IMG/VR virus record: IMGVR_UViG_3300044695_006401
Origin: a virus
Taxonomy: Duplodnaviria; Caudoviricetes
Reading direction: 5' to 3' (one strand)
DNA: 64,000 nt
Position 1 is the stretch's first letter; each line of letters starts with the position of its first letter. The notes below the pieces were generated by a model. That model had not been told where the DNA came from. It saw nothing but the letters and a program-made list of their open reading frames with translations, and did not search any database. Made by a program: the position numbers and the translations under genes. This document shows positions 15,222-63,336 of this stretch, in pieces.

Positions 15222-15231
15222 TATTACCCAA

Positions 15232-15266: not shown

Positions 15267-15281
15267 CAATTAGTTTTTTAA

Positions 15282-15755
15282 TTATTTTGACATTGATAAT
15301 GCTTTTTTAGCATCTCCAATGTAATTTACAGCATTTCCTGCAGTTGGTGAACTAGGTTGACCTTTAGATTGACAAAAATTTCTAACCATTTTATCTACTA
15401 CACTACCTCTTCCAAAAACATAAGTACTACCACCTTCGAAAACATCCGCAGAACTTCTTGGACTTAATGCCCCTGGATTGGCGCTAGGACCACATGCGGC
15501 ATAAAGAACAATGTTTCCTTTTGTTACAGGAGATCCATTATCTTTGATTCTAACTCCGTTGAATTTAACCTGAGCAGTCACTGTTCCCTTGTAACCTGAA
15601 CCACCAGCGATAGTTGGTTGAGAAAGTACAATAGCGTAATCTTGCATATCACGACTATATCCAGCATCAATAACAGCTGGTGTAGTTTGTTCCTCGATTA
15701 CTCTTTTTACGATATTAACTAAATCGGATTCAGTTAGTCTAACAATTTTTTTCAT
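15282..15755 (-). CDS. hypothetical protein with LTESDL..IV.RVI.EQ N-terminal leader
   Basis: MKKIVRLTESDLVNIVKRVIEEQ. Confidence 0.75.
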   Translation of the reverse strand: MKKIVRLTESDLVNIVKRVIEEQTTPAVIDAGYSRDMQDYAIVLSQPTIAGGSGYKGTVTAQVKFNGVRIKDNGSPVTKGNIVLYAACGPSANPGALSPRSSADVFEGGSTYVFGRGSVVDKMVRNFCQSKGQPSSPTAGNAVNYIGDAKKALSMSK

Positions 15756-36700: not shown

Positions 36701-36837
36701 ACCGTAAATGTACCTGTGGTACAATCTACAAGATAATTACTTCGATTAATTGTGTATGTCGTGGTAACCGCACTATACGGAAATAATACCCCACCTAAAG
36801 ATTTGACCCCATTACGGGCTACGAATTCATTTGACAT
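27754..36837 (-). CDS. giant collagen-like fibre protein A (3027 aa)
   Basis: About 105-aa N-terminal beta domain, about 2740 residues of Gly-X-Y, C-terminal domain resembling capsid cement/decoration fold. Confidence 0.88.
28309..36522 (-). repeat. Gly-X-Y repeat region (GTN/GTS dominant; GAQ/GAT/GPQ blocks toward C-terminus)
   Basis: Gly every third residue, essentially unbroken by eye apart from a GL interruption near the end. Confidence 0.95.
28694..29660 (-). repeat. 504-bp-period near-exact tandem duplication inside fibre A
   Basis: Marker ctccgttaac at 28725/28833/28941/29031/29121 recurs at +504 (29229/29337/29445/29535/29625). Confidence 0.8.
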
Positions 36838-36946
36838 CTATTTTTTCTTTTTTCCCTCTCCAAAAGAAAACCCTTTGATTTATGTTTTATAGATAAATAT
36901 TACCTGAGTAAAGTTTATCCACCAAAAAGAAAAATTAAATAATTAT

Positions 36947-39900: not shown

Positions 39901-42900
39901 AAGTACTAGCAAAAACTAATTCCAAGTAATCATTTTGTTGTAAATCAGCCACGATCGAAACAAATGGTAATTGTTTGACGCTATTAGACACTAATCCTAA
40001 AATACTATCAGTTCTTATTATATTAGTACCATTTTTTCTAACAAAGAAATCCACATCTACAGCAGCACCCCCTTGATTTTTTTCAACTTGGGGGGAAAAA
40101 CTGAATTCATATATACCTGAGTATTGTACAGTTACCCTACTTCCGCTCACAACCGAAATACCATTCTCAATTTCAACCGTATTGTATGTTACAACCGTAG
40201 GGGTATTTGCCCCTGAAACTTGTTGTGTTAAACTACTACTATATTGGGCATAATAGTTAGCAACCCCCGCACCACTACTTCCTGAAGTCCCATTTGTCCC
40301 GCTAGTTCCGTTCGTACCATTAGTCCCTGAAGTTCCGTTTGTACCATTAGTCCCTGAAGTTCCATTAGTCCCTGAAGTACCATTTGTACCGTTAGTTCCG
40401 CTAGTTCCATTTGTACCATTGGTCCCGTTCGTACCTGATGTTCCATTTGTTCCGCTAGTTCCATTTGTTCCGCTAGTACCGCTAGTTCCATTTGTTCCGC
40501 TAGTACCGTTAGTTCCATTCGTTCCTGAAGTCCCATTTGTACCGCTTGATCCATTAGTACCCGATGTTCCATTGGTTCCGTTCGTTCCGCTCGTACCATT
40601 TGTTCCACTTGAACCATTGGTTCCATTTGTTCCGCTAGTACCATTAGTTCCTGAGGTTCCGTTCGTTCCGTTAGTACCACTTGTACCATTTGTTCCGTTA
40701 GTACCTGAAGTTCCGTTCGTTCCACTAGTTCCATTTGTACCATTCGTTCCACTCGTACCGTTAGTACCCGAAGTACCATTTGTTCCATTGGTTCCGCTCG
40801 TACCGTTAGTACCTGAAGTTCCATCTGTTCCGTTGGTTCCTGAAGTTCCATTAGTACCACTTGACCCATCTGTTCCATTAGTTCCTGATGTTCCGTCTGT
40901 ACCATTAGTCCCTGAAGTACCATTTGTTCCACTTGACCCATCCGTACCATTAGTTCCGCTGGTTCCGTCGCTACCACTAGTACCATCTGTTCCGTTTGTT
41001 CCTGAAGTTCCGTCAGTTCCCGACGTTCCATTAGTTCCGTCAGTACCGCTAGTACCATCTGTTCCGTTAGTTCCTGAAGTTCCATTAGTCCCATTTGTAC
41101 CTGAAGTTCCGTTGGTACCATTCGTACCGCTAGTTCCATTCGTACCATTTGTACCACTACTTCCATCCGTACCGCTAGTTCCATCGGTACCATTAGTTCC
41201 GTTTGTACCATTCGTTCCTGACGTTCCATCCGTTCCTGACGTTCCATCCGTACCTGAAGTTCCATCTGTCCCTGAAGTTCCATCCGTTCCGTTTGTTCCA
41301 CTTGTACCATCCGTTCCGTTAGTACCTGAAGTACCATCTGTTCCGCTTGAACCATCCGTTCCATTAGTACCTGATGTTCCGTCTGTACCGTTGGTTCCTG
41401 AAGTTCCATCTGTACCATTTGTACCTGAAGTACCATCCGTACCATCCGTACCATTTGTTCCGCTAGTTCCATCTGTTCCGCTAGTACCATCCGTACCATT
41501 AGTTCCTGAAGTTCCATTCGCACCATTAGTCCCATTTGTACCATTAGTCCCGCTTGTACCATTTGTACCATTAGTCCCGCTTGTACCATTTGTACCTGAT
41601 GTTCCGTTTGTACCTGAAGTACCGTTAGTTCCATTTGTTCCGTTAGTACCCGAAGTTCCGTTGGTGCCACTTGTACCATTGGTTCCATTTGTACCAGAAG
41701 TCCCATTTGTTCCACTAGTACCATTAGTCCCTGAAGTACCGTTTGTACCGTTAGTTCCACTTGTGCCGTTCGTACCTGAAGTTCCATTAGTACCGTTTGT
41801 ACCTGATGTTCCATTCGTACCGTTAGTACCTGAAGTACCATTTGTTCCTGATGTTCCATTGGTTCCTGATGTACCGTTAGTACCATTTGTTCCTGAGGTT
41901 CCATTGGTTCCGGATGTTCCGTTTGTTCCGCTAGTACCATTCGTTCCGTTAGTACCTGATGTCCCGTTTGTCCCATTTGTACCTGATGTTCCATTTGTAC
42001 CACTAGTACCGTTTGTACCTGAAGTTCCGTTAGTTCCATTAGTTCCGCTAGTACCATTAGTCCCTGATGTCCCATTTGTACCATTACTTCCCGATGTTCC
42101 ATCGGTCCCGCTAGTACCATTAGTTCCAGAAGTTCCGTCGGTACCGCTCGACCCTGAAGTTCCTGATGTGCCGTCTGTTCCTGAGGATCCACTTGTTCCG
42201 CTAGTACCATCCGTACCACTAGAACCTGATGTTCCACTTGTGCCATCGGTACCGCTTGATCCTGAAGAACCTGATGTTCCACTTGTTCCGTCAGTACCTG
42301 AAGAACCGCTTGTGCCGCTTGAACCAGATGTCCCTGATGTACCGTCTGTTCCGCTAGAACCTGAAGTTCCACTTGTACCGTCAGTACCGCTCGACCCTGA
42401 AGTTCCTGATGTGCCGTCTGTTCCTGAGGACCCACTTGTTCCGCTAGAACCTGATGTCCCGCTAGAACCTGATGTCCCGCTAGTTCCGTCAGTTCCTGAA
42501 GATCCACTTGTTCCACTAGTACCATCTGTACCTGAAGATCCGCTCGTCCCATTAGTACCATCTGTTCCTGAAGTTCCATCCGTACCTGAAGTACCATCTG
42601 TTCCTGAAGTACCATCTGTTCCACTTGTCCCGTCTGTTCCGTTAGTACCTGAAGAACCACTAGTGCCATCCGTACCATTTGTTCCTGATGAACCACTAGT
42701 TCCATCAGTTCCGCTTGAACCCGAAGTTCCGTTAGTACCATCCGTACCGCTTGTTCCACTAGTCCCATCTGTTCCGCTAGAACCAGATGTTCCATCTGTG
42801 CCTGAAGACCCATTTGTCCCATCAGTACCTGAGGTTCCACTTGACCCACTAGTGCCATTCGTACCACTTGAACCTGATGTACCGTTAGTTCCATTAGTTC

Positions 42901-45061: not shown

Positions 45062-46225
45062 TTATGGTTGGGTGTCGTTCCCTCTAAAATAAATATTTGT
45101 TGAATCAAGTATTTTGAATATTTGGTAAGGGAATGTGGTATATACTTTATACGTATCTGCAGGAATTGTCGAACCAGTATACACCAAGTCATATTGGTAA
45201 ATCGTTGGTTCAGTATTAACTCCTGTAAATAAATTAGCATCACCCGTAGTGTTTATGTCAATTTTAACTTGGTATTCGTCGTTAGTTGCACTAAATGGTA
45301 TCAACCATGTATACCAAGCCTGTCCGTTCACTGTCCCGGCAGGTACTTCTGTTGTTAAGAAGTTGTAAGCGTATATAGGGTTACCAAAACTATCCAAACC
45401 TCCACTTACTTGTGGTACAGTTTGAGTAATTATTGATGGGAATTGAGAGTTAGTCCACCCTGCGTAATCAACATATAAGTTCATATCGATATCGAATTGA
45501 GCTTGATTTTGTGTTGGTTGCGAAGAGTTAGAGAATCCAAAGAAGTTAGATCCGCTGTTATACATCCATGTACCAATGTCTTCTGATCCATCTATAGGTT
45601 CTATGAATAAGTATGCAAATGTATTCAAGAACGGAGTAGGTGTTGGAGTAGGTGTTGCAGTTGGTGTTGGTGTAGGTGTTTCTGTTGGTGTTGCAGTCGG
45701 CGTTGTTGTCGGTGTTGGGGTTACGGTTGGTGTCGGTGTTATAGTTGGTGTTGGTGTTGCAGTTGGTGTTGATGTCGGAGTTGCGGTTGGCGTTGCAGTC
45801 GGTGTTGGTGACATTGTTGGTGTCGGAGTTGGTGTAGGAGTTGGATCCAATGTAACAGGTGGAGGTGCCGGAAAACAACAAAAATCACTATCCACAATTG
45901 ATTCCAAAATAGATATAAATAAAACATCTCTTAAAGGTAGAATTACAGTTCCTTGAGTTGTTTGGATACTAAATTCTCCTTTAAACCTACCTATTTTACT
46001 TGTATTTTTTTCTGTGAATTGATAATATATAGAATTTCTTTCAGATGAGTAAGAACACAAAGCATTTGCAATACGATATACACCTGTGTCAACATCTATC
46101 ATGGAAAAATAGATGGTACTCCCCGTTAAGTTATTATAAGGGTAGTTATAATCTAATTTTCCGTCTTTGATGAGGTCTATTTCAAGGTATGGTAGAGTGC
46201 TCTTTTTGCGAATAAAAAATTCCAT
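45062..46225 (-). CDS. structural protein: BppU-N-like domain + long Pro/Thr linker + C-terminal domain
   Basis: F.I.K.STLP.LEI.L, YQFT...T...G.F.GEF.I resembles baseplate upper protein N-domain; about 70-aa PT linker. Confidence 0.65.
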
Positions 46226-46376: not shown

Positions 46377-48077
46377 TTATAGTCTTGTCATAATTTCGTG
46401 AAATTCTTCATTAACTATAGTTTTATTATAACCAAAATCGATCAATTTACTCTTTTCTTCAATAAGTGATTTTTTGATTGTTTTTGAGTGACTATTTTCA
46501 ACAATAAAACTCAAACGATTGCGAATGATTTTTGATTCATTCGATGAATCTTGTTTTCTTTGTTTGTGCTCTAACACAACTTTAGAAATGGTTTTAGAAA
46601 GTTCCATAACTTTTTTATTATAAATATCTTCTTTATTGTAATGTTCAGGTAAAATTAATTGGAAATCTAAAAATTGTCCTACAGGATTTCTCATTAGTAG
46701 TATGTTTTTTTCGCCGATTTTCCTTCTAAAACCTTTCACATCCTTATATTTGTTCCAACAAAATTGTAATTGATTTTTAACAGATTTTAATTGTTCATTA
46801 TTTTTTAGATCTGAAAAATTTATTTCTTTTTCAGTATCTAATAAACTAAGGTTTGTTGGGAATTTACCAGTTTGGTGCATCACTTTCAAATCTTCGCCAT
46901 ATTCTGAAAGTTTTTGAAGGCAATCTTCTTCTAAAGTTTTTGGTGTGGATTTATCTTTATACCCTCCTCTATTATCGGATGGTACAAACATATTACGATA
47001 CCAATCAGTATTGAATGATTTTTTAGAAAGATCAGATTTATTAAATTCTACAGTTTCAGTTTCTGACTTTTTGAGTTGCTTATTAGGTGATAAAATCAAA
47101 TTAACTATTTCGTTATCTTCATCAATATCTAATTCATCTATTTTTAAAAAAAAGTAACGACTATCACCATGAGATAGAGTTGCCGTTAAAACATAAACAC
47201 CATAATTTATATCCTCAATTAAAAAATCACCATTTTTGTCACTTTTACCTATTTTAACATCGTCTTTATTATCTTTTCTAACTAATTTCACACTTACATT
47301 TGGTAGTGTTCCTTCAAATGTTCTCGAAAGGTTATTTGACTTCCTATCCTCGGGTTTTTCTTTATAAACAATTGTGGATTTGAAATTTGTTACTCCTTTT
47401 AAATTTGCGGACTTTCTTACATTAAAAGTCAAACTATCGTTTTTTACAGGATTTACACTTATTTCAGAATCAAAAATATTTTTAATTACGGTTCCATCAG
47501 ATAGGGTAACACCTATTACAATATCATTTTGTTTAAATGTTCCTTTTATTTCTTTACCTGTAGATAGTGATTTATATGTCCCGACGCCATCAATCATTCC
47601 GTTTTTGAACTCGCCCTTATAGGTGTCTTTACTGTCTAAAAATATGATCGTACCTTTACCACCTATTTTACCATCTATAAATTCACCAGCGTATTTCCAA
47701 TTATTAGTAAAAAAATTATAATCTTTTGAATCCGTTAAAGTTCCATACTGAAATTTATTTGCTTTTGAGTTGTCTCCTTTAAATGGTCTTGGCGTCGATA
47801 GTGGTGTAGAGTCACTGTAATATTCTCCATTGAAGGTTCCTCTGTCCCCAGTTTCCGATTCCATTGTACGAATCAATTTATAACTATCGAAACAAGCCTT
47901 TACCTTAATATTTTTACCATCAATTACACCATCAAATTCTGCATAACCAAATTCGGGAGGTGTTGATAGTGGACCTAAAGAATATAAATTTACAAAAGGA
48001 CTTGGGTCTCCACATCCTTTCCATTTGGATCTGTTCTGATCTAATGTTCTTTTAATTATGACGGTTTCAAAATCCAT
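46377..48077 (-). CDS. MORN-repeat protein with prealbumin/carboxypeptidase-regulatory-like domain
   Basis: YAGEFIDGK..GKG, YKGEFKNG.IDG.G; L.NVSV.L...G.SD.NG.F.I..I.YG.Y.L.A. Confidence 0.75.
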   Translation of the reverse strand: MDFETVIIKRTLDQNRSKWKGCGDPSPFVNLYSLGPLSTPPEFGYAEFDGVIDGKNIKVKACFDSYKLIRTMESETGDRGTFNGEYYSDSTPLSTPRPFKGDNSKANKFQYGTLTDSKDYNFFTNNWKYAGEFIDGKIGGKGTIIFLDSKDTYKGEFKNGMIDGVGTYKSLSTGKEIKGTFKQNDIVIGVTLSDGTVIKNIFDSEISVNPVKNDSLTFNVRKSANLKGVTNFKSTIVYKEKPEDRKSNNLSRTFEGTLPNVSVKLVRKDNKDDVKIGKSDKNGDFLIEDINYGVYVLTATLSHGDSRYFFLKIDELDIDEDNEIVNLILSPNKQLKKSETETVEFNKSDLSKKSFNTDWYRNMFVPSDNRGGYKDKSTPKTLEEDCLQKLSEYGEDLKVMHQTGKFPTNLSLLDTEKEINFSDLKNNEQLKSVKNQLQFCWNKYKDVKGFRRKIGEKNILLMRNPVGQFLDFQLILPEHYNKEDIYNKKVMELSKTISKVVLEHKQRKQDSSNESKIIRNRLSFIVENSHSKTIKKSLIEEKSKLIDFGYNKTIVNEEFHEIMTRL

Positions 48078-48974: not shown

Positions 48975-51647
48975 TTATTTTTTGTAATATGTATCTATAA
49001 AGTCTTTTATTGTGTTGTAAGTTCTTTCCGTATTCAAGTCTAAATTATTAAATTCAGGAGTAACCCACATAATTTCTTGTCCTTTAGGGAAACTATTATA
49101 AACACTTTCTGGTAATGAGTAGATATCTCTTTTTTGTAGAACTACTAAGTATTGTACATTATCACCATTTAAGACTATAGACCCTAAATCCACCCCTCGT
49201 GGGATTGATACTGATGTTATATCAATATTTGACACACCAAATATTGTGTTCATTTTTGTCAACAATTCACCCGCATTACCAGCGGCAACCATTTCTTTTT
49301 GTTTTTGTTTTACCATATTTAAGTAATCCTTGGGTAACTTTGGAACATATTTCATATTGTTTTTTACAAATTCTCCTTGTTCTTTATCGATAATTCCCTC
49401 TTTTACTAAGTCGTCTACTCGATTTTTAAAAATCGGTAGAGCAATTTGTTGAGTCTTAATTATTTGATCATAACCAACTTCTTCAACTCTCTCCTCCAAA
49501 CGATTGTTAGTCTTTTCAATTATCTTATCATTTTTCTTAATTATTTCTTGATTAGATTTCTCTCCTACTGCCGCTTTAGTTGCATCCACAATATTGTCAT
49601 ACTCACCAGGGTTGTCTTTATAATAACTAAGCCTGTTATAAAGTTGAATTATCGTGTTGTCCGCAAATCCTGGAACTGCGATTTGTAGTACGTCGGTCCA
49701 TTCATTACCTCCAGGTATTTTACCCATATATTGCTCAAACCCAAATTCTACAATTGACTTACCTGATATAAAATCGATATATTCGGGTAACCAGTAAGCC
49801 TCAAATAAATTTTTATCCTTGGTGTCCATCCCAACTACATTTCTCGCCTTTTGGAATGCGTCAAAAATAGCAGAGAGTAATCCGGCAACAAACGGAACTA
49901 AAATATATCTTAAACCAATAGTTTTTAATGTGTTGTAATAAATCGTCCTTCCTCTATATCCCTTTGTTGCCAATAATCTCTCAACCTCTCTAGGTGTCTT
50001 CCAAGATCCTGTCGTAAACCATGACAGTACTTTACTGTTCATAATAAACTCACCCATTTTGTCCTTAATAACTGTGGTAACTTCATTATTTTTTACGGTT
50101 TTGGACATGTCTTCGAATTTTTTACTAGTTTCTTCTGACATTTTTTTAAAGTCCATACCACCCTCATCGACAGATGCTTTATTAAAAAGGTCTCTAATAG
50201 ATGCTGATCTAAAACCCGGAGGTTGTTCATCAACCACTTTACAAAAACTTTGGAATGACTCTATATCTTGTTGGGTTGTAAGTTTCTTAACCGCGTTTTC
50301 TTTGAAAGCCTTCCACAAATCTTCTACAAAAAGTTCTCGACTATATTTTGCCGGATCCAAAATAATTTCAGATCGTAGTTTTAGTAATCTATCTTTTATT
50401 TTAAAAAGATAATATGGATCTAACTTTGTTGGGTTTTCACTAACATTTCTATATGCTGCCAATCCCTCTCCGAACGCCTTTTCAAATTCTTTAGCATATG
50501 TTTCAAATTTAGGTTTCAAGGTACTATTGATTACTGCATCAACTAATACTTCAAAATTTGCAACCCACCATCTAAATAATGGTCTAAAATATTTAACATA
50601 CCATGAATCAAAATTTACATTTTTCGCACTCAAAATTTTAAATGTGTTTCCTAATTCTTCCAATCTTTCTGATCTAATTACAAATTCAAGGGAGTCATCA
50701 AGATTTACATCAATCCCCTTTTTGAAATCATCAACATCTTTTATAAATTGTTTTTGTTGGTCGTTTAATTCATCCTGATTTTTTTGTAATAATTCTTCGT
50801 ATTTGCTTAAAAACTTTGCATCAACTCCTTGTCCACCAATGCTTTTAATAACCTCATCAGCGTTTAAACCTAAAGGGGCGTCCCCATATTTTACAGTTTT
50901 TGTTCTTTTTGGATAGTTGAATACTTGTTTGTTTTCAACCATATCATCTAGTAACTGTTTTGTTTTTGAAAAATTTCTTAAGAATTCTGATGTTTGTTGA
51001 AAAAGCAAGTTTGGATCCACTATCGACGGGTCAATTTTTCCCGTTTTTACATTGTGTTTAATTATGTAATTAATGTTATCGTCGATCAAATCAAATACTT
51101 CGTCAACATTATTTAACTTTTGTCCTGATGTGGATATTCCATATATCGCCTCGTAAAAAGTTTCATCTAATAGCGTATATAAACGATTCATTGGATGGTT
51201 TCTGTTACGAAGTAATGCTTTTACGGCATCTTCTGATATTTTCTTTATTTGATCGGGATTAAGTTTAATTTTGGAAAGTCCCGCCAATGATGTATTCGGA
51301 ACGGCATCGTCAGGGAATTTATTTGCCAAATCAGATAAAAAATCATCTGTAGTAGAAAGTATTTTTCTCACTTCGATGTCATTTCTTAAAACTTTCATCA
51401 GATTTTCAATTTCATCATCAGTAAGACCACCAGCTTCAATTAGTTTGAGTTGTATTTCATCTAATTCCGAATCAGTTATTTTAACGCCCTTTTGTCTTAC
51501 AGACTTTAATATTGTCATAAAACTATCAAACGATCTAGGTGCTTTGATTGCTAAAGTTTTTAACCAAGTTCCTTGTTCAACAATTAGTTTTTGAACACCC
51601 ATGAGTTCCTGTATTCTCGATATTTCAGATATGAGTTCTTTTTTCAT
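48975..51647 (-). CDS. large helical protein with LISEISRIQELM...LIVEQ leader
   Basis: 890 aa; one hydrophobic segment; TATTTAT 5 nt upstream. Confidence 0.8.
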   Translation of the reverse strand: MKKELISEISRIQELMGVQKLIVEQGTWLKTLAIKAPRSFDSFMTILKSVRQKGVKITDSELDEIQLKLIEAGGLTDDEIENLMKVLRNDIEVRKILSTTDDFLSDLANKFPDDAVPNTSLAGLSKIKLNPDQIKKISEDAVKALLRNRNHPMNRLYTLLDETFYEAIYGISTSGQKLNNVDEVFDLIDDNINYIIKHNVKTGKIDPSIVDPNLLFQQTSEFLRNFSKTKQLLDDMVENKQVFNYPKRTKTVKYGDAPLGLNADEVIKSIGGQGVDAKFLSKYEELLQKNQDELNDQQKQFIKDVDDFKKGIDVNLDDSLEFVIRSERLEELGNTFKILSAKNVNFDSWYVKYFRPLFRWWVANFEVLVDAVINSTLKPKFETYAKEFEKAFGEGLAAYRNVSENPTKLDPYYLFKIKDRLLKLRSEIILDPAKYSRELFVEDLWKAFKENAVKKLTTQQDIESFQSFCKVVDEQPPGFRSASIRDLFNKASVDEGGMDFKKMSEETSKKFEDMSKTVKNNEVTTVIKDKMGEFIMNSKVLSWFTTGSWKTPREVERLLATKGYRGRTIYYNTLKTIGLRYILVPFVAGLLSAIFDAFQKARNVVGMDTKDKNLFEAYWLPEYIDFISGKSIVEFGFEQYMGKIPGGNEWTDVLQIAVPGFADNTIIQLYNRLSYYKDNPGEYDNIVDATKAAVGEKSNQEIIKKNDKIIEKTNNRLEERVEEVGYDQIIKTQQIALPIFKNRVDDLVKEGIIDKEQGEFVKNNMKYVPKLPKDYLNMVKQKQKEMVAAGNAGELLTKMNTIFGVSNIDITSVSIPRGVDLGSIVLNGDNVQYLVVLQKRDIYSLPESVYNSFPKGQEIMWVTPEFNNLDLNTERTYNTIKDFIDTYYKK

Positions 51648-51688: not shown

Positions 51689-53815
51689 TCAGTTCTTTAT
51701 CAAGGTGTCTGATTTTTTACTTACCATATTTAACATATTTTCATCAAACTCGAGGTCATTTAAATCATCGGTAATTTCTTTTATTTTTTTTCCTTTTTGT
51801 TTGTTTAATTCCTCCTGTACTTCTTCTTTAGTGACTTGACTTTCATTCTTCTTTTCCCACTCAAGTTGATTTTTTTCGATTTGAGAACTCGCTTGTTCTA
51901 TAGCTAATTTTATTGATTTTGAATCTAAAGAAATATTACCGTAATTATTTATTTTGTCAAATTTTTTGGAGTCTTCCAATAATGATTCTAATGTATCATT
52001 TCCACAAACACCGTCAGGATTCAATCCTCTATTTTTTTGATATTTTTTAATTACATTTTCAGTGTATTTATCATAATATCCCCATTTGAATGATGAATTA
52101 ACGGCACCCAAATTATATGCGGGAGACGACTTTTTCAAAGAAAATATTTTGAAGTTTCGTTTTGTATCGTCCGATAATGTAATATTAACTATATATACCC
52201 CTTCTTGTAATTTAGACATGTCAACAAGTATGTTAGTTTTTTCATCATTATTTTTTGATGCCATTTCTCTACCGTAAACACTATACACTTTGACACTACT
52301 TATTTCTTCAGCATTCTGAAAGTTCAAAATCATATTTTTACTATCGTAGCTATAGCTAGCAACTTTTTGATCACTTTTAATACCTAGTTTTTTTAGAACA
52401 TACTGAATAAAAACAACTTCATACATAAAAGTATTCTTAAAATTTTTCTCACTAAATGTAAGATTAGATTTTATTATTTGTTCCAATGACATGACAACAA
52501 TATCCTTTAAAGTACTAAGTTGTTTCTCTATGTCATCAATTAGTTTTTCTTTCTCTTCTGTATCGCATCTTTCAGCAAATCTTTGTGTTGCTCCGCCAAT
52601 TTTACCTAAGAGAGATAATATTTTATTTTCTGAACCTTCAAGGTCTTGTAGACTAAACGACCTACAAACTCCAAGACCACTTGCGATTGCGTCCCATGTC
52701 ATAAAACCACCTCCCATTACAAGACCTGCTTGTGTTAAAAAATTTGCAGGTAACAAAGATTTTTTTACTAAGTATAGTAAAAATTCTAAAAACTTTTCTA
52801 CATTTTTAGTTAGAGTCATTAGTGTTTTGGTTACTACATTTTTCATGGCAGTTTTAAGTGCCAATTTTACATAATAGTCTTGATTCTCAATAAATTCATT
52901 TAAAGCTTGTCTTTCTTGTGAACTTAACGATTCGGAACCGATCTTTCCTGCTTTCCATAAACCTAACTTTTCTAAAAACTTTTTGAACTTAGGTATGCCC
53001 ATATTCTTTAGGTATTTTGCCAAAAGAGTAAAACCAGGCACTAAAGCAAATACCATACCTAATCCTGCCATATATATATCACCATCTACCGTGGCATAAA
53101 TAGCAGCATCTAATAATTCGAGTGAAAACTCTACTAATCCATAACCTAAACTAGTTCCAATACCACCCGTCGCTATTGCAACTAATACCGCAGATACGGG
53201 TAACACAACATGTAAAAGTTCTCTTGTATATGGAGGTATCATTTGTTTGGCTATTGTTGTGGATGGGTCAAAAACTGATTCATAAGAATATTTTTCATAT
53301 GGATTAAATTTTTGAAGAATATTTTGATATTGTATTAACCATTTGTCATTTTTCTGATATTGTATTTCAGAAGCCATATTAACATCCCTATTAAGTTCTT
53401 GAAAAAATGGGTCTTGGGCAACACTAAACTCTTGTTGTTGTAAAAACTGAATTATTGTTAACCCTACCGATTCGGGAAAATTTTTGTGTATTAATTTTAA
53501 AAGTATGTCATACTGATTTTTGTTTTTTAAGGTTTTTAATGATTCTAGTAATCCGTCCTCATCTGTACCCCATTTCCAAAACTCAACCCAGTATGAATCT
53601 TTGTTTATTTCTTTTTTAATTTTTTCAAAAACTCTATATGCAACTGTCGTGTCTTTAGATGGTCTGTTAGTATCAATTAATGGTTGGAACTGCCCTTCTG
53701 AACCTAATCTATCACTTTTAACGGTTTGTTCCATTAAAGTCTTAGATCTATCAAAATTGATTAATGATAATTGTCTAAGTAGTTCAATATTTAGTGATAA
53801 ATCTTTGTCCATCAT
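51689..53815 (-). CDS. multi-domain protein: leader, hydrophobic helices, PG-binding domain split by T9SS-CTD-like insert
   Basis: Start at 53815 by ATGA overlap; EVVFIQYVLKKLG ... T..VIKKYQKNRGL.PDGVCG..TL. Confidence 0.75.
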   Translation of the reverse strand: MMDKDLSLNIELLRQLSLINFDRSKTLMEQTVKSDRLGSEGQFQPLIDTNRPSKDTTVAYRVFEKIKKEINKDSYWVEFWKWGTDEDGLLESLKTLKNKNQYDILLKLIHKNFPESVGLTIIQFLQQQEFSVAQDPFFQELNRDVNMASEIQYQKNDKWLIQYQNILQKFNPYEKYSYESVFDPSTTIAKQMIPPYTRELLHVVLPVSAVLVAIATGGIGTSLGYGLVEFSLELLDAAIYATVDGDIYMAGLGMVFALVPGFTLLAKYLKNMGIPKFKKFLEKLGLWKAGKIGSESLSSQERQALNEFIENQDYYVKLALKTAMKNVVTKTLMTLTKNVEKFLEFLLYLVKKSLLPANFLTQAGLVMGGGFMTWDAIASGLGVCRSFSLQDLEGSENKILSLLGKIGGATQRFAERCDTEEKEKLIDDIEKQLSTLKDIVVMSLEQIIKSNLTFSEKNFKNTFMYEVVFIQYVLKKLGIKSDQKVASYSYDSKNMILNFQNAEEISSVKVYSVYGREMASKNNDEKTNILVDMSKLQEGVYIVNITLSDDTKRNFKIFSLKKSSPAYNLGAVNSSFKWGYYDKYTENVIKKYQKNRGLNPDGVCGNDTLESLLEDSKKFDKINNYGNISLDSKSIKLAIEQASSQIEKNQLEWEKKNESQVTKEEVQEELNKQKGKKIKEITDDLNDLEFDENMLNMVSKKSDTLIKN

Positions 53816-54261
53816 GATGCGTATTTTCCTGTTGGTCCGTAACCTCTTCCTGAAGTCCATTTATAACCCGTACCTTGGTAAGTCGGACCTTTAGTTCTCC
53901 CACTATCCCAAACAGTGTTCCCGACAGGGTTTCCCTTAGATCTATTGACTCCACTTTCCCACTTACTTACAGTACCTCCCCCTGAAGATGCGGTATCAGT
54001 AGTGGTATCTGTGGTAGTATCTGTTGTAGTTGCAGTTTCTTCACCCTCTTCTTTGATTTCACCTTCACCCATCCCATCAGAATCATAACTATCCATTTCT
54101 TTGTCCATTTCTGGATTTACACCATATTGTGATGGTCCTGTTTGTCTTGGGTCTTGGTCGTCCGCATAGTCACCATACGGATCTTTTGTAAACTCCGTTG
54201 ATCCTTCTAAGATATTCATCAAATTTTTGATGCGTGATATGCTCTCTTGTAAATTTTTCAT
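53812..54261 (-). CDS. hypothetical protein with LQESISRIKNLM leader and WxSG repeats
   Basis: KWESG/VWDSG/KWTSG in C-terminus; TTTD repeats. Confidence 0.75.
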   Translation of the reverse strand: MKNLQESISRIKNLMNILEGSTEFTKDPYGDYADDQDPRQTGPSQYGVNPEMDKEMDSYDSDGMGEGEIKEEGEETATTTDTTTDTTTDTASSGGGTVSKWESGVNRSKGNPVGNTVWDSGRTKGPTYQGTGYKWTSGRGYGPTGKYAS

Positions 54262-54298
54262 TTACTAATAAATACTTTAACAATAAGAAAAATAAGAT

Positions 54299-55636
54299 TT
54301 ATCCTTTGTATTGTAAATGGAAGTGAGGACCTGTGGAAGCATCCGAGGGGTCATTATATTCGTCAATATAACCGAATCCAGAATATTGACCTTTATAATT
54401 ATTCAATAGATTTATAAATTGGCGATGATAACCCCCATCCAAAGTAACATCTAAAGCCTTACCCATAGAGTGTAGACTAGTATAATTTAATCCATGATGG
54501 AATTTATCATTTCCAGATGTCACAACTAAATTTGCGTTAGGAACCATTTTTTTAAATTCCTGAAATAGTGATGTTACAATACCTAAAAACTTAGGATCAA
54601 CATTTCCTCCACTATCTATATCTGCACCACCACCCTTTAGTTGTACGCCAATATTAGACATTTCTTGTTTGAAATCCGAAACGGACCTGTTAATCATCTC
54701 GAATTCATCTTCAGGTTCAACATCTTTTAATATTTTACTTAAAAACTTACTCAAGTCATCCTCATCAAATCCATGAACTCTTAATTCATAAATTAATTCC
54801 TCTAAAGTGTCATTATCAGATATACCTGTTGGTTGAATTGTATTATCCATTTGGAACTTTTTTACCGCCTTTTCTGTTTCTTCATCGTAAAACCCATTTT
54901 CGGTCAAGTCCCCATACCCTAAGAATGATAATGCTATTTTAATAATCCTAACATCATCAATATCACTAAACCTGTCATCAATACTGTAACTATTTTTTGA
55001 TTTAACAATTAAATCGAAGTTATCTAAAAACTCATATATCGTGTCGTAATCTGTTTCGTCATTAATATTAAGGTTTTGGTTTTTCTGTAAAATTTCTTTT
55101 TGATCTTCATTTTCAAATTCAAATCCACCATCGTTAATAAAATTATCAACAACCCCTCTTAGGTTTCTTATAACTTTACTACCCTTTGAAAGTACCTCAT
55201 CCCCAAAAGAAAAGTAGTTACCGACAACATTTACTTTGTCTTTTTCTAACATCTGATGAAATATGATTTCATCATCACCAATTTTGTCCCATTGTTCGTC
55301 ATCAAAGTCATATTCATCGATATCAATATATCCTTTCATCAAATAAAGTTCAGCATTAGGAAATACTCTTGAAAGTTCATTAACTAATGCCGATATGCTC
55401 GTATTTGGGTCAAATAAATCGTTTGACCCAACAGAAAAAAACAAAGTATCAACAAATGGATATGGTTCTTGTCTAGTAAGTTGCATCAATAATAGATTGA
55501 CATCGATGTTTGGATCTATAAGGTCTATTGGTCTAAATAAATCTGAATTATCCAACAAGTAGGCAATTTCATCACCGATTACTGCAACATTTGGTTCGTT
55601 AACAAAATCCTCTTGTAAATTAAAAATCTTTTTCAT
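54299..55636 (-). CDS. SGNH-like + PG-binding + M15/Hedgehog-like Zn peptidase
   Basis: IGDEI, VGSND; AVKKFQ....I..TG..D..T; TSG, SLHSMGKALD, HFH. Confidence 0.72.
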   Translation of the reverse strand: MKKIFNLQEDFVNEPNVAVIGDEIAYLLDNSDLFRPIDLIDPNIDVNLLLMQLTRQEPYPFVDTLFFSVGSNDLFDPNTSISALVNELSRVFPNAELYLMKGYIDIDEYDFDDEQWDKIGDDEIIFHQMLEKDKVNVVGNYFSFGDEVLSKGSKVIRNLRGVVDNFINDGGFEFENEDQKEILQKNQNLNINDETDYDTIYEFLDNFDLIVKSKNSYSIDDRFSDIDDVRIIKIALSFLGYGDLTENGFYDEETEKAVKKFQMDNTIQPTGISDNDTLEELIYELRVHGFDEDDLSKFLSKILKDVEPEDEFEMINRSVSDFKQEMSNIGVQLKGGGADIDSGGNVDPKFLGIVTSLFQEFKKMVPNANLVVTSGNDKFHHGLNYTSLHSMGKALDVTLDGGYHRQFINLLNNYKGQYSGFGYIDEYNDPSDASTGPHFHLQYKG

Positions 55637-55938: not shown

Positions 55939-56432
55939 TAATTGTATTTTTGAAATCTTTTGAACATATCTAATGATTTATATACATTCTCCTCAATTTG
56001 ATCTCTTTGTTGTTGTAAATCTTCATCCTTATTAAGTAAATCATCTAAATTAGATTCTTCGTAAACTTCTTCCTCCACTTCATATTCATAAACATCCGAA
56101 GGTCCCTTTGATTCAAAATCATAAGGTCTTTTACCCATACCCATTTGTGTCATAGATTGTTGTGGACCTTTAGAGTCAAAGTCATACGCCGGTGTAATCT
56201 CATCATAGTTGAGTGGTTTTGCTGTAATCTCATTAATATTATGATTTCTGTAGTTCCCAACCTCACCTCTAGAATTAACAGTAATTCCTTCTTTATCACC
56301 AGTGGCGTCGTAAACCCTCAATGGAGTCATATTAGATGGAATATTACCTACCGCATAACCATTATATAATTCACTGTGTTTTTTTAATATTTCTTGTCTT
56401 TCATCATTAGACATTATTGAATATCCTCTCAT
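55938..56432 (-). CDS. hypothetical protein with internal YDF.SKGP repeat
   Basis: 164 aa. Confidence 0.7.
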   Translation of the reverse strand: MRGYSIMSNDERQEILKKHSELYNGYAVGNIPSNMTPLRVYDATGDKEGITVNSRGEVGNYRNHNINEITAKPLNYDEITPAYDFDSKGPQQSMTQMGMGKRPYDFESKGPSDVYEYEVEEEVYEESNLDDLLNKDEDLQQQRDQIEENVYKSLDMFKRFQKYN

Positions 56433-57112
56433 TCTATTTCTTTATTTAAAAATTTATTACCTCCAAACATCCAAAATTGTTTAGCCGTTGTTGCCAAACG
56501 ACCCATAGTTCTTTGAACCCTCGGAATACTTATTTCTTCGTTTTTTTTCTCAAGATATTTTAAGGATGCCCTTACAAACAAATCATAAATGTCTTGGGAT
56601 CGACCAACAAGTTTATCTATAAGTATCTGCTTATCTTCATCAGGAGTTCTGTGGTAACTTTGTAATTTGAAAAAATCTTTTATATAGTCAGGACCCATTA
56701 ATAAAAACTTACCACCTTCCGTAGCCATATTGTGTGAACCGATTCTTCTTTCAAGCTCCAAAAACTTATATATCTCATCTAAATCTCTTGTTGAAAAACA
56801 TGCTAAAAAATCACCTTTAGCCATTAGGTCATCAAGATTTTTAAAATTAATTTCTTGTATGTCTTCCTTTTTTTCTTCTTCATCCATTAACCACCCATCA
56901 ACATCGGGTAATAATGAAAGAGTACTGATTACTTTACCATCATTATCAAACCAATTCACTCGGTATTGGTAATCAACGGAACCACCGAAAGAAGGTATTT
57001 TTTCTACTTTTATAACTTCACCTTTAGTTCCGGGACCAACATCCTCCCCATCCATATGGACAAGAATGATTTTATCACCGGTGTCAAGTTTAGGGTTTAA
57101 TCCTTTTTTCAT
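56429..57112 (-). CDS. hypothetical protein, N-terminal DUF4314-like (SH3-like) domain
   Basis: GD.I.L.HM......PGTKG.V..V......V.W......L.L.P..D.W. Confidence 0.6.
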   Translation of the reverse strand: MKKGLNPKLDTGDKIILVHMDGEDVGPGTKGEVIKVEKIPSFGGSVDYQYRVNWFDNDGKVISTLSLLPDVDGWLMDEEEKKEDIQEINFKNLDDLMAKGDFLACFSTRDLDEIYKFLELERRIGSHNMATEGGKFLLMGPDYIKDFFKLQSYHRTPDEDKQILIDKLVGRSQDIYDLFVRASLKYLEKKNEEISIPRVQRTMGRLATTAKQFWMFGGNKFLNKEIE

Positions 57113-57168: not shown

Positions 57169-57789
57169 TTAGTGTCCGTTAAATTTTAATCCTTCATTAG
57201 GTCCTGTTCCTGTCACAACAACTGTAGATACCATAGAACCCTTAATCATCACATCAATGGCAATATACTTGTAGTCTCTATCTTCCAAAATCTTTTTGTG
57301 TGGTGGAGAATTTAAAAAAGACTCTAAAACTTTTTTTGCCTGAACCTCATTAGATGGTCTAACCCCTCCACTATTTATTACCTCACCAATAGGTCCAAAG
57401 TCTTTATTCGTATTGTAGTATCTGATTCTATCTGCAAAGTTTGGAATTAACTGTGTTTTACCCTTGTATTCAAAAGTTGATCCGTCACTAGTGGTGCTTT
57501 TTTGTGGTTCCCCGTGACTAATAAAATACTTTTCTTGTTTGAAAGACTTATCTTGATTTTGTGGTTTATTTACCCAAACCATATCAAACAAATAATTGTT
57601 ATGATGCTCACACGCAAGACTTGCATTTTTATTTATTGTTAAATCAACAACAGAGTCACCATACAAAGTCTTTCTGTGTTCGTTCAGATATTTTAAAAAA
57701 TAAAACTCAACACTATCTGAAAAAATAGTTGTTTGTGTATAACCAAAAGTGTAAATAAAAAAAGATAAAAAAACTAATAGACTTTTCAT
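57169..57789 (-). CDS. secreted CAP/SCP domain protein
   Basis: Signal MKSLLVFLSFFIYTFGYT|Q; YLNEHR, AC..H, GEVI, FLNSP.H..IL; host-type TATATTTG upstream (57809-16). Confidence 0.8.
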   Translation of the reverse strand: MKSLLVFLSFFIYTFGYTQTTIFSDSVEFYFLKYLNEHRKTLYGDSVVDLTINKNASLACEHHNNYLFDMVWVNKPQNQDKSFKQEKYFISHGEPQKSTTSDGSTFEYKGKTQLIPNFADRIRYYNTNKDFGPIGEVINSGGVRPSNEVQAKKVLESFLNSPPHKKILEDRDYKYIAIDVMIKGSMVSTVVVTGTGPNEGLKFNGH

Positions 57790-59442: not shown

Positions 59443-59472
59443 AAAAAACCCAACCGAAGTTGGGTTTTTTTT
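59443..59472. terminator. bidirectional intrinsic terminator
   Basis: aaaaaacccaac-cgaa-gttgggtttttt. Confidence 0.88.
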
Positions 59473-60307
59473 ATTTAAGTAAGTTGTAATACTCTTTGAA
59501 ATGTTTGATTCGATCGGCTAAACCTATTGTACCACCATTTACTCTTTTAGTAACTGATGTTACGGTAGCGTCATCAGCACCTTTATCACAAATCGCCCAT
59601 AACTTATTTGAATCAAAAAAGAACGCGGCGGAAGCTAATGGATATTTAGTGGCTACTAAGTCAGGGTTAGCAACACAATCCTCACCAATAAACTTTGTAA
59701 AGTTTGTGTAGTTTGCCTTTCCTGTCAATTGAATATAACCTCTTCCTCTGAATTTGAAACCTTCACCTGACGCTTCGTCACCATTACCCATTCTTGATGC
59801 GTAAACACGAGCTGCAATTTTTTCAGGTTTACGAGCGTAAGATTCGTTCAAATTTCCTGGAAAATATTTACCAAATATTTTCTTTAATCCATCCGCAGAA
59901 TAATTTAAGTTTTCACTTACCGCCTTAAAGTTACCCGATTCGTGACCACACTGAGCTAAGAAATGTGCTAACCTTAAATTATTTGTAATATTAAACTTAG
60001 CCGCCGTCTCAGGTATTTGAGTTAGAACCGCATCAGGAATATGACCTTTTAACTTTTCAATATTTAATGGACCCCCTTTTGGAAGAACCACATCTTCTTT
60101 AATGACTTCTGTTTTTGGCGATTGTTCTCCGAACAATTTTGTCCATGTTGTATCTCCAACAATACCATCGTCTTTTAACCCGTTTGCTTTTTGCCAAGCT
60201 TTCACAGCCGCTTCAGTTTTTGGACCGAAGGTTCCTATTGCTTCGACTCCAAGTTTTACCTGTAATTTTTTTACATCTTCTCCTTTAGATCCGACCTTTA
60301 ATAACAT
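59471..60307 (-). CDS. endolysin: PG-binding domain + GH19 lysozyme/chitinase-like
   Basis: GSKGEDVKKLQ..L, AVK.WQ..NGL.DDG.VG; AHFLAQC.HES, FRGRGYIQLTG..NY, VTKRVNGG..GL.DR. Confidence 0.92.
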   Translation of the reverse strand: MLLKVGSKGEDVKKLQVKLGVEAIGTFGPKTEAAVKAWQKANGLKDDGIVGDTTWTKLFGEQSPKTEVIKEDVVLPKGGPLNIEKLKGHIPDAVLTQIPETAAKFNITNNLRLAHFLAQCGHESGNFKAVSENLNYSADGLKKIFGKYFPGNLNESYARKPEKIAARVYASRMGNGDEASGEGFKFRGRGYIQLTGKANYTNFTKFIGEDCVANPDLVATKYPLASAAFFFDSNKLWAICDKGADDATVTSVTKRVNGGTIGLADRIKHFKEYYNLLK

Positions 60308-60361
60308 ATTTTTTAGTTTTATTAATTAATGTGTTTCCACATAAAATAAATATAAGTAAGT

Positions 60362-62596
60362 CTACCTTATTATTGTTAAATTTCCGTGATATTCTTTAAC
60401 CTCATCAGTGTTTGACACACCAAACTGTAAAATCCAAGTATAAGAACCGTCAGGACATATAACATTATTGTATGTACCATCCCAACCAACTTTAGAATCC
60501 ATACTTTCCCATATCACTTCTCCCCAACGATTGTAGATAGTCATGCGATACTGATATAAATCAACACCTGAAGTTATTACCGGTAAAAAATACTGATTAT
60601 GTTCATTACCATCAGGAGTAAATGTATTAGGTATATAAATCAATTCTTGCGGACATAGACTTAGAGCTACGGTAATCGTTTCAGGATTAGAAATACAACC
60701 ATTACTCCATCTCACAACATCAAATTGAAATATACCTTCTTGATCCCAAGTTAAACTAATTGTGGGTCCTTGTAGTGTATCACCAAACACATACCATTCA
60801 TTATAACCAACGAATGGTGATTGTGCTTCATATAAATCTTGTATTGTGTCCCCATCACATATTTCGTGATATTCATAATTAACACCAACCCTCCCATCGA
60901 TTACAGGAATTACGGTCGGTCTTGGGAATACATTTACTGATATTGTGGTATCAAACCAACAACCAGATTGTGTTACAAAATAACTTACACCATCAACCCC
61001 AATAAAACCATTGTTGGGACAATAATCATTCAACCATACATTATTACCACTAAATGTTCCTCCAGCCGGGACAGCAGTAAGAGGTGTACACCCATCGTAT
61101 TCACAAAAAGGTCCGATTTGTGCAACTTGGGGTAATAAATTGAAATTAACTAACGAAAAGTTTACAGGGTTACTCATACACCCAAATTGGTTAATTCCAT
61201 AAACAGATAACACATTATTATAGAATCCACTGTTTTCACCACTTACATCTAAATTAATTTGTTGTGTTCCTTGACCTGATGTTATATTACCTAAATTGGT
61301 TGACCAGTTATATGTCAAATTAGGAAACACACTACCAACATTAAAAATATTGTTTGTCGAATTATAACATAGAGTGTCTGACCCAACTATCGGTGTTAAA
61401 GTTACTTGTGGTGGGTCAACTAAGTTTACGACACCCGTAACACTACAACCAAGTGCGTCCGTAATAGTAAATGGATATGTGCCGGCACATAAACTTAAAT
61501 TTATAAAATTATTTGGTAATTGACCGTTCCACGAAATTGTTTGAACTCCGTTACCACCTTGTGCAATAATATCAATAAAACCATCGCAACTTTGAAAACA
61601 AGTTGGGTTACCGAAATTAATTATTGGTTGAGGTAGGTTTGGTGGACCAGGTAAAACAAATACTGTGTCAGGTCCTAAATTACTGCCTTGACCCGCATTA
61701 CAAGTGTTCCATCCTGCATTACAGGTTGGGTATACAAACTGACAGGTATAATTCGCACCTGCAGCAGGTGGGGTAACGGTTATTGTTGGTCCTGTACCAA
61801 TAGGATTTGGGTTACCGACTTGGTACCAAGTTAAAGTTGGCAAAACTACCGGTCCTGTTGGTGTCCATCGGTAAGCATCATTAACTGCTGTCCATACAGA
61901 TGAGTTTCTACCAGGAACGGCAATTCCAATAGTACCTAATTGATTATGAATACCTTGTGTTGCTGTTCCATTCTGCCATTGTAGACAAGCAGGTTTGTTT
62001 TGAATGTAACTATCAATATAATTTGTTGATTCGTTTATCACAATATGGAATGTTCCAAAGTTATTAGTGCAAGAGAACATAGGCATGTTAGTCCAAGACA
62101 CAATTAACTTTCTACAAGGAGCAACTCCTGTTGTTTGGTATCTGATCTGACCACCAATACCAGGATGCCAGTCTTGCCATGGTCCCATAATACAGTTTTT
62201 AGGGACATTTATATTACCTGTTGGTATAGTTTGTGTTGTGAAGGTTATTGGTTGTGCTGGTGAGAAGGAAATCCACCCATTTGACCCCACCCAAAACTGA
62301 GTATAAGTCTGACCAAAGAAACAAAAGGTAAACCCAATGTTAAAAGGACCTTGTTGTGAGTCATCAGTCATGAATAACTGATTACCTGTGTTAGTTTGAT
62401 TCACATAAGGGATTGGTGCAACACTATAGTTTGTTGTTTGATTAGGTGTAGGTCCACCAACACCACACTGACTAAGGTCTGCAGTTAAGGTTGTGGATCC
62501 AACTCCACACGGAAGAATTTGGTCAGGTCCTAATGCCGGACAGAATTGCGAATACGCAAAAAGGGGGAATAAGAATAAAAGTATTAGATGTTTCAT
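60362..62596 (-). CDS. SprB-like T9SS cargo protein (signal peptide, NIDO-like, SprB repeat, type-B/CHU_C CTD)
   Basis: MKHLILLFLFPLFAYS|Q; PTC..SCDG.I.....GG...Y.FTITD..GC; YIPN.FTPDG...N, IYNRWGE.I, WDGTYN, G.Y...L. Confidence 0.88.
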   Translation of the reverse strand: MKHLILLFLFPLFAYSQFCPALGPDQILPCGVGSTTLTADLSQCGVGGPTPNQTTNYSVAPIPYVNQTNTGNQLFMTDDSQQGPFNIGFTFCFFGQTYTQFWVGSNGWISFSPAQPITFTTQTIPTGNINVPKNCIMGPWQDWHPGIGGQIRYQTTGVAPCRKLIVSWTNMPMFSCTNNFGTFHIVINESTNYIDSYIQNKPACLQWQNGTATQGIHNQLGTIGIAVPGRNSSVWTAVNDAYRWTPTGPVVLPTLTWYQVGNPNPIGTGPTITVTPPAAGANYTCQFVYPTCNAGWNTCNAGQGSNLGPDTVFVLPGPPNLPQPIINFGNPTCFQSCDGFIDIIAQGGNGVQTISWNGQLPNNFINLSLCAGTYPFTITDALGCSVTGVVNLVDPPQVTLTPIVGSDTLCYNSTNNIFNVGSVFPNLTYNWSTNLGNITSGQGTQQINLDVSGENSGFYNNVLSVYGINQFGCMSNPVNFSLVNFNLLPQVAQIGPFCEYDGCTPLTAVPAGGTFSGNNVWLNDYCPNNGFIGVDGVSYFVTQSGCWFDTTISVNVFPRPTVIPVIDGRVGVNYEYHEICDGDTIQDLYEAQSPFVGYNEWYVFGDTLQGPTISLTWDQEGIFQFDVVRWSNGCISNPETITVALSLCPQELIYIPNTFTPDGNEHNQYFLPVITSGVDLYQYRMTIYNRWGEVIWESMDSKVGWDGTYNNVICPDGSYTWILQFGVSNTDEVKEYHGNLTIIR

Positions 62597-62702
62597 ATAA
62601 TTAATAAATATGAAATACTAAACCTAATACTTCATTTAGTCAAATTAGATTATCAAATATGGGTATTTAGTTATTAAATGATATTTATTAAAATATATCT
62701 AA

Positions 62703-63284
62703 ATGAAATTATTAAAAATACTCAAAGAAAACATTTACGAACAAGGTGGTAAGTTCGGATCGATGATCGATCCTGAGAGCGGAATCTCTGTTGGTCAAAC
62801 TATTGGGTCTTTGGATTTTTCAGACTCGTCAAGTGTTAAGACAAGAAAACCAAAAGATGTATATACTTCAGAAGTAGGTTCAAAAATTATTGCATCGGCA
62901 GAATCTCAAATTGGTAAACCTTATGTGTGGGGATCTGAAAGTGAAAGTGATGGGTTTGATTGTAGTGGATTAGTAACATGGGCATATAATGATGCTGGGG
63001 TTTCAATACCGAGAGGTACCGCACAATCATTTTTTAATAGTGCTGAGAAAATAGATAAAGAAAATGCACAAGTAGGTGATATGATATTTTTTGATGCAAA
63101 TACAGAAAGTAGTGATATTGATCATATTGGTATTGTTCACGCAGTAAATGAAGATGGAACTATAGATATGATACACTCTTCAACAGATAAGGGTGTAAAT
63201 ATTCAAAAAAATGTCTTAAGTGGTTATTATGGAAGGGTATTCAAAGGGTTTGGTAGGATGTCCCAAGTATCTCAAGAACCATAA
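62703..63284 (+). CDS. NlpC/P60 (C40) cell-wall peptidase with ILKENIYEQ leader
   Basis: GKPYVWG, GFDCSGLV, HIGI, MIHSS. Confidence 0.88.
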   Translation: MKLLKILKENIYEQGGKFGSMIDPESGISVGQTIGSLDFSDSSSVKTRKPKDVYTSEVGSKIIASAESQIGKPYVWGSESESDGFDCSGLVTWAYNDAGVSIPRGTAQSFFNSAEKIDKENAQVGDMIFFDANTESSDIDHIGIVHAVNEDGTIDMIHSSTDKGVNIQKNVLSGYYGRVFKGFGRMSQVSQEP

Positions 63285-63289
63285 ATAAA

Positions 63290-63315
63290 AAAACCGTAAC
63301 TTTCGTCACGGTTTT
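63290..63315. terminator. bidirectional intrinsic terminator
   Basis: aaaaccgt...acggtttt stem between convergent genes. Confidence 0.7.
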
Positions 63316-63336
63316 CCTGCTCAGATGATACGCCTT

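Follow-up and report, generated by a model that had tools for sequence, protein, structure and literature searches.

Why would a phage carry a gene whose product is addressed to a secretion system of its host? This question is raised by a locus in the IMG/VR virus record IMGVR_UViG_3300044695_006401 (Duplodnaviria; Caudoviricetes), of which a stretch of 64,000 nucleotides (nt), hereafter called the window, was analysed. The gene, hereafter called the cargo gene, had been described in an initial annotation, made without database searches, as coding for an SprB-like substrate of the host type IX secretion system (T9SS), with a signal peptide, a NIDO-like domain, an SprB repeat and a complete type-B (CHU_C) C-terminal sorting domain (CTD). 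After our analysis, we favour with moderate confidence that its product is a compact surface adhesin, which would be exported by Sec and the T9SS of the host, held by a host PorP/SprF-like protein, and would present a conserved head on a stalk of immunoglobulin (Ig)-like domains at the surface of the infected cell. The protein revealed five parts, namely a Sec signal peptide, a head of about 285 amino acids (aa), an Ig-like stalk, a PKD_6 domain together with a sub-threshold SprB repeat within this stalk, and the type-B CTD:

60362-62596, minus strand: cargo gene, a single open reading frame (ORF) of 744 aa
62549-62596, minus strand: Sec signal peptide, residues 1-16, with predicted cleavage between A-Y-S and Q, which exposes Gln17
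61697-62548, minus strand: head domain, residues 17-300, about 285 aa, a remotely NIDO-like beta-sandwich with many conserved Cys
60647-61669, minus strand: stalk of four Ig-like domains, residues ~310-650, holding the SprB repeat (330-358) and PKD_6 (398-472)
60365-60637, minus strand: T9SS type-B CTD, residues 654-744 (PF13585 and TIGR04131)

In regard to export, the signal peptide was recognised by inspection (M-K-H with K2, a hydrophobic run, A-Y-S and then Gln17). The same succession of K/R, hydrophobic core, small-x-small motif and an invariant Gln at position +1 was found in 56 of 56 distinct phage orthologues, at a mean identity of only 38% in this segment. A Gln at +1 corresponds to the Q-rule described for signal peptidase I substrates of Bacteroidetes (PMC5837995). 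At the other end of the protein, Pfam CHU_C (PF13585) matched residues 654-740 with 47.4 bits against a cut-off of 27, covering positions 2-84 of the 86 profile positions, and NCBIfam TIGR04131 matched residues 654-744 with 41.7 bits against a cut-off of 35. The type-B CTD is complete, lies at the extreme C-terminus and is the sole one within the window. With both profiles above their cut-offs and the phage context described below, the two export signals were confirmed, and the reading as a phage-encoded type-B substrate meant for the host surface was supported.

The cargo family is abundant in Bacteroidota genomes, which would suit a bacterial gene that entered the record by host DNA or chimeric assembly, a contamination that the initial annotation had itself named as one point on which its reading would fall. 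However, the window encodes a T4-type large terminase (TerL), a portal protein, a minor coat protein and a GH19 endolysin, and a tblastn search revealed a full-length orthologue with 49.7% identity in LR745206.1, an uncultured phage record of 634,780 bp. Al-Shayeb et al. reported a complete, curated genome of 634 kb and predicted that the largest genomes (>634 kb) infect Bacteroidetes (PMC7162821). More than 1,200 relatives with 53-86% identity were found in the protein database, many of them on contigs of 150-311 kb full of small ORFs without a family, and 154 stretches in IMG/VR encode relatives. The related contigs share a gene order of DUF5856, NlpC/P60, cargo, orf227, orf164, orf101 and a PG_binding protein, so that the same phage neighbourhood recurs on many independent viral contigs as well as in the curated complete genome, while the genes flanking the cargo gene in the window were shared by 0 of 77 bacterial loci with relatives, an empty result that leaves absence unproven. 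Furthermore, the stretch is present in at least 18 metagenome runs from lake water, and contigs from two of these runs bridge the gene and its neighbours across the gene borders without differences. A TerL query from the window against three metagenome-assembled genomes (MAGs) with close copies gave no match (an empty answer, by which absence is unproven), as did a megablast search with 20 kb of the window against a phage collection. The cellular relatives were all located in Bacteroidota genomes or MAGs, save one MAG labelled Akkermansia. The cargo gene belongs to the phage and not to the host, and a contaminating or misassembled bacterial gene is extremely improbable.

Type-B cargos need a PorP/SprF-like outer-membrane protein, which shuttles them out of the translocon and also anchors them (PMC9143113; PMC12618676), and a search for such a partner in the phage genome had been proposed along with the initial annotation. 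While Pfam PorP_SprF detected 7-26 copies per genome in five bacteria that carry relatives, which served as positive control, it found none in LR745206.1 and none in five IMG/VR records, two of which are rated 99-100% complete. A profile of our own, built from 18 bacterial PorP proteins, likewise gave 0 matches in the window and 0 in 84 related phage loci, so the proposed search ended without a partner. Among 77 bacterial relatives, this profile detected a shuttle gene at a distance of up to 5 kb in only 4 cases, and the cargo family thus appears to be an orphan family even in bacteria. A comparable situation is described for F. johnsoniae, in which three orphan cargos (Fjoh_1123, Fjoh_1720, Fjoh_4934) share the unlinked shuttle Fjoh_1677 (PMC12618676). 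Since no PorP/SprF was found in the phage, a shuttle of the host would have to serve the phage cargo. We also weighed the product of orf227, a protein of 227 aa, as a possible unrecognised PorP-like partner, but dismissed it for its charged, cytoplasmic-looking sequence and its lack of a signal peptide.

Modelled alone with AlphaFold2, the head reached a predicted local distance difference test (pLDDT) score of 92.5 and a predicted template modelling (pTM) score of 0.88. A Foldseek search with this head resulted in nothing at E <= 0.001 (best E 0.08), VIA-align gave Z <= 7 over about 75 residues only, which correspond to an Ig-like sub-part, and a profile search with the head among PDB sequences gave no match. 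The fold of the head cannot be named from solved structures, from which it does not follow that the fold is novel. As for the proposed NIDO-like nature, Pfam NIDO (PF06119) showed no direct match to the 744-aa protein at E up to 10, but it matched 3 of 41 aligned family members (best E 3e-5). In addition, two Bacteroidota proteins with NIDO matches above the cut-off scored 66.8 and 60.4 bits with the head profile, in both cases exactly where their NIDO region lies, and a language-model search listed a cluster consisting of 92% NIDO proteins at 0.85. A NIDO-like identity of the head is supported in the sense of a remote homology, and in this form, though not as a direct domain assignment, the earlier proposal holds.

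The full-length AlphaFold model, built on 34 relatives, revealed a pLDDT of 86 and resolved the head (17-300), four Ig-like domains (~310-650) and the CTD; a Foldseek search with this complete model yielded nothing but strings of Ig domains. In the stalk, Pfam detected a PKD_6 domain (PF19408, residues 398-472, 33.6 bits against a cut-off of 25), which was missing from the domain list of the initial annotation, and one copy of the SprB repeat (PF13573, residues 330-358), which remained with 19.3 bits below its cut-off of 28. The repeat is clear in phage orthologues of 817 aa, such as P0120, which carries one Ig domain more and scored 47.8 bits with Pfam. On the whole, the domains named in the initial annotation were right or nearly so. 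The label SprB-like fits the succession of head, Ig stalk and type-B CTD, though neither the sub-threshold repeat nor the far smaller size. SprB and the giant SprB-repeat proteins also consist of Ig/SprB-type repeats that end in a type-B CTD. With about 6,500 aa, SprB is about nine times the size of the cargo, which has 744 aa, four Ig domains, an SprB repeat below cut-off and no adjacent sprF, and a role in gliding is not implied.

GhpA, the grappling-hook protein of Aureispira, is a T9SS-secreted surface protein that forms heptameric hooks. Among solved structures, GhpA (PDB 9flp and related) was the best match to the cargo, with a profile E of 1.9e-136 over 16 stretches reaching the C-terminal region, and the Ig repeats of the stalk match GhpA in both sequence profile and fold. 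Unlike the cargo, GhpA comprises 5,898 aa, and the match spans the repeats and the C-terminal region, not the head. In bacterial proteins of 2,000-7,400 aa, phmmer matched the stalk region in as many as 74 stretches. The length of the stalk differs inside the phage clade, as P0120, L003, L010, L076 and L078 encode proteins of 817-823 aa and L079-L084 proteins of about 660-680 aa; an extra Ig domain with SprB repeat in some phage orthologues and shorter forms in others are expected of a spacer.

Is the cargo a recent acquisition of single phages, or is it kept as a lineage? In a maximum-likelihood tree of the head domain (143 distinct rows, quick method, support by the Shimodaira-Hasegawa-like approximate likelihood ratio test (SH-aLRT) only, midpoint root), all 68 phage rows and one long-branched MAG row formed one clade with an SH-aLRT support of 99. 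The neighbouring clades consisted of bacterial proteins of 1,040-1,055 aa from MAGs of Flavobacteriales, Sphingobacteriaceae and Chitinophagaceae. Since the tree was rooted at its midpoint, a direction of transfer between bacteria and phages is suggested by it, but not demonstrated. The long-branched row stems from a Crocinitomicaceae MAG contig of 127,545 bp (L110:4986-6311, plus strand) and encodes a copy of 442 aa with head and CTD, in which the Ig stalk is missing and several conserved Cys are replaced. The TerL query from the window gave no match against this MAG. This copy possibly reflects a phage-to-host transfer and, with it, a hint at the host family.

Mean pairwise identities within the phage clade were highest for the head (77%), followed by the CTD (52%), the Ig domains (38-52%) and the signal peptide (38%), and the number of Ig domains differs between the orthologues. 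Towards its bacterial relatives, the head still showed 50-60% identity. As the head is so strongly conserved, a conserved ligand is favoured over a target in an arms race. For five carriers, the identities of TerL and cargo to the window proteins were as follows:

G009: TerL 87%, cargo 70% (first 397 aa)
G006: TerL 86%, cargo 77%
G007: TerL 45%, cargo 58%
G010: TerL ~32%, cargo 57%
LR745206.1: TerL 28%, cargo 50%

Among the distant carriers, conservation is thus higher for the cargo than for TerL (57-58% versus 32-45%, and 50% versus 28% in LR745206.1), whereas the order is reversed in the close relatives (70-77% versus 86-87%). This pattern suggests either an exchange between giant phages or an unusually strong constraint on the protein. 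Each related phage record of 220-290 kb contained exactly one CHU_C protein, while LR745206.1 contained four. Its further CHU_C domains are located at 15127-15387 (minus strand), 498975-499202 (plus strand) and 578823-579080 (minus strand) in ORFs of 833, 127 and 1,207 aa, respectively, of which the 833-aa ORF lies 12 kb from the orthologue.

The following features were assigned around the cargo gene:

59471-60307, minus strand: endolysin with GH19 and PG_binding_1 (Pfam; PHROG phrog_181, E 4e-69), directly downstream of the cargo gene
59443-59470, no single strand: bidirectional intrinsic terminator with a 12-bp stem and a T-run on both strands, closing the cargo-endolysin unit
62604-62610, minus strand: TATTTAT motif, followed by 7 nt and then the cargo ATG
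63287-63318, minus strand: terminator after the upstream DUF5856 gene, a 14-bp stem and then a T-run

The gap between cargo and endolysin (60308-60361) contains no terminator-like site. As strong terminators were detected on both sides and none in between, cargo and endolysin probably form one transcription unit in this phage, which the terminator at 63287-63318, as predicted from its stem and T-run, would isolate from upstream transcription. The perfect terminator at 59443-59470 serves the convergent genes for the endolysin and orf526. The shared unit with the endolysin suggests a late expression of the cargo. The TATTTAT motif ahead of the cargo ATG, already pointed out in the initial annotation, is present in 42 copies across the two strands of the window. 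Of these copies, 14 (belonging to 13 genes) lie within -25 to -8 of start codons on the same strand, where 0.26 copies would be expected at the rate of the whole window and 1.35 at that of the intergenic DNA, and many of the genes preceded by it are found in a structural-looking block at 45-57 kb. Based on this enrichment, TATTTAT is probably a promoter-like element that represents a promoter class of this phage's own. The motif often follows a G or A and lies 9-22 nt ahead of the start codon, mostly with 4-8 nt left to the ATG; examples were seen upstream of 7473-8246, 8497-8811, 45062-46225, 46377-48077, 48975-51647, 53812-54261 and 56429-57112. So short a distance to the ATG may mean that the transcripts have no leader or almost none.

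Two RNA libraries yielded contigs that lie within the cargo gene. One of these is an exact match of 287 nt at 61397-61683, and three others match at 61842-62400 with 1-5 mismatches. As small parts of the gene that give neither start, strand nor level, they are a weak hint of transcription.

The build of the cargo, its relationship to long bacterial surface proteins and to the stalk of GhpA, and the conservation of its head all favour an adhesin with a conserved ligand. In the proposed course, the cargo would be exported by Sec and cut by signal peptidase I before Gln17, after which the type-B CTD would carry it through the T9SS translocon of the host. A PorP/SprF-like shuttle of the host would then anchor it on the outer membrane, so that the conserved NIDO-like binding head is held out on the stalk of four Ig domains. 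In this phage, its own TATTTAT element would drive the cargo together with the endolysin. The activity would consist in binding the conserved ligand and thereby changing the surface properties of the infected cell, and as the likeliest effect the cell would stick to other cells or particles before it bursts. Several points weigh against this course of events. The presence of a T9SS in the host is deduced only from the range of all relatives, the Bacteroidota, and a type-B CTD recognises its shuttle with high specificity (PMC12618676), so that the host would have to provide a matching one. As the head has no solved structural relative, its designation as a binding domain relies on the architecture and the NIDO link. 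In regard to expression, RNA libraries can contain DNA, so that the contigs mentioned above do not prove transcription. The position of the cargo next to the endolysin on the same strand, correctly described for this locus in the initial annotation, is not conserved in most related phages: it was found only in the window and three related loci, while in most related phages the next gene downstream is orf227. Finally, a late co-expression with the endolysin leaves a surface protein little time to act.

A wider interpretation is tentative and in our view more doubtful than credible: a wide range of giant Bacteroidota phages would each keep one orphan type-B cargo with a CTD that mimics a host adhesin, which would borrow a specific PorP/SprF shuttle, perhaps with the gliding track, and either replace the host adhesin, blocking a receptor, or cling to fresh hosts before the burst. 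If true, this clinging would make up for the fact that very large virions diffuse poorly, and the phages would be the first viruses found to exploit the type-B shuttles of the T9SS for infection. A further reading, and the main one among the possible roles put forward in the initial annotation, ahead of altered motility and cell aggregation, is a role in receptor masking or superinfection exclusion, in which the cargo takes over the type-B shuttle or gliding track of the host and displaces or covers a T9SS-dependent receptor adhesin, so that the infected cell would be shielded from reinfection and the progeny from loss on debris. Mutations of phage-resistant Flavobacterium often map to gliding and T9SS genes. 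A precedent for such a role is Llp of phage T5, a lipoprotein that is exported by the host to the outer membrane, blocks the FhuA receptor and alters the surface of the infected cell; Llp and the cargo share no sequence or fold relation and use different export routes, and the function of the cargo would be comparable only by our interpretation. The retention of a single copy across very different giant phages would suit masking, as would the joint production with the lysis enzyme in this phage, which fits a protection of progeny at the burst, and an orphan cargo that brings no shuttle must compete for that of the host (PMC12618676). The same strict pairing of CTD and shuttle argues against a general jamming (PMC12618676), and a variable receptor calls for a variable head, while the head is the most conserved part of the protein and still half or more identical to bacterial relatives. 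Masking is the strongest of the alternatives, though unlikely.

Peptidoglycan-related proteins are encoded on both sides of the cargo gene (NlpC/P60 at 62703-63284, PG_binding at 51689-55636), and together with the terminator-bounded unit common to cargo and endolysin they could indicate a lysis accessory, i.e., a late outer-membrane protein that helps to breach the envelope after the GH19 endolysin and stands in for a spanin, none of which is evident here. This is improbable: most related phages do not have the gene beside an endolysin, its product is built like an adhesin (head, Ig stalk and CTD) and not like a membrane-fusing or pore-forming protein, and the nearest bacterial relatives are ordinary long T9SS cargos. 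Weak profile matches of the Ig region to phage Hoc and decoration proteins, and the location on the same strand as the long structural-looking block carrying the same upstream motif, would agree with a Hoc-like decoration protein or fibre of the virion, whose signal peptide and CTD are relics of a captured host gene. However, relics would decay, whereas every orthologue, across 46-86% identity, has kept the traits of the signal peptide, the Gln at +1 and the motifs of the CTD. Moreover, a Sec-exported protein is not available for assembly in the cytoplasm, and a PHROG search with the cargo gave no match, so that a part in the virion is even less probable than one in lysis. An adhesin displayed by the host machinery remains our preferred interpretation.

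How does such a protein compare with known T9SS substrates? The closest parallel are the orphan type-B substrates of F. johnsoniae (PMC12618676), which similarly combine a Sec signal peptide and a type-B CTD, have no linked PorP/SprF but a shuttle elsewhere, and are putative adhesins. In contrast to them, the phage cargo, whose secretion is predicted, would need a shuttle from another genome and carries a NIDO-like head. Among phages, type-A sorting domains were described on three variable genes of 'Cryophage' and called a unique occurrence (PMC7468147), and T9SS sorting domains near or on BACON proteins were described for crAss-like phages, in which case the CTD type was not named (PMC6949934). 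More generally, surface-localised proteins encoded by huge phages were reported by Al-Shayeb et al. (PMC7162821). The Cryophage and crAss-like cases share with the cargo that phages of Bacteroidota carry proteins addressed to the host T9SS. They differ in that the CTDs of Cryophage are of type A and hypervariable between variants, and that the domains of both are found on enzymes or BACON proteins, whereas the cargo, a type-B protein that depends on a specific shuttle, shows a conserved head and occurs as a single copy across many giant phages. Phage-encoded T9SS cargo is thus already known for type A, while an orphan, single-copy type-B cargo kept across many giant phages, i.e., a clade-wide version, was not found in the literature, of which our coverage was incomplete.

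The sorting of T9SS cargo, and in particular the pairing of type-B CTDs with their shuttles, is an open problem, for which a phage cargo that lacks its own shuttle provides a natural experiment in specificity. The cargo would be a conserved, clade-wide example of giant phages remodelling the surface of the infected cell. For abundant freshwater Bacteroidota, it could have consequences for superinfection, aggregation and attachment to particles. With 744 aa compared to thousands in its bacterial relatives, it also offers a tractable model of the NIDO-like head, which has no structure yet.

Two further observations were made in the window. An ORF of 206 aa (57169-57789, minus strand), which belongs to no Pfam or PHROG family, revealed a clear signal peptide with a Q-rule end (G-Y-T followed by Q). 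It is part of a block consisting of the endolysin, orf526 and orf206 between the cargo gene and orf227, which was also present in L006 and L063, but not in most relatives, and may encode a second exported phage protein or a part of the lysis cassette. In addition, the G+C content rises from about 0.32 to 0.42-0.53 in the region 28000-44000, over two giant ORFs at 27754-36837 and 36947-45043.

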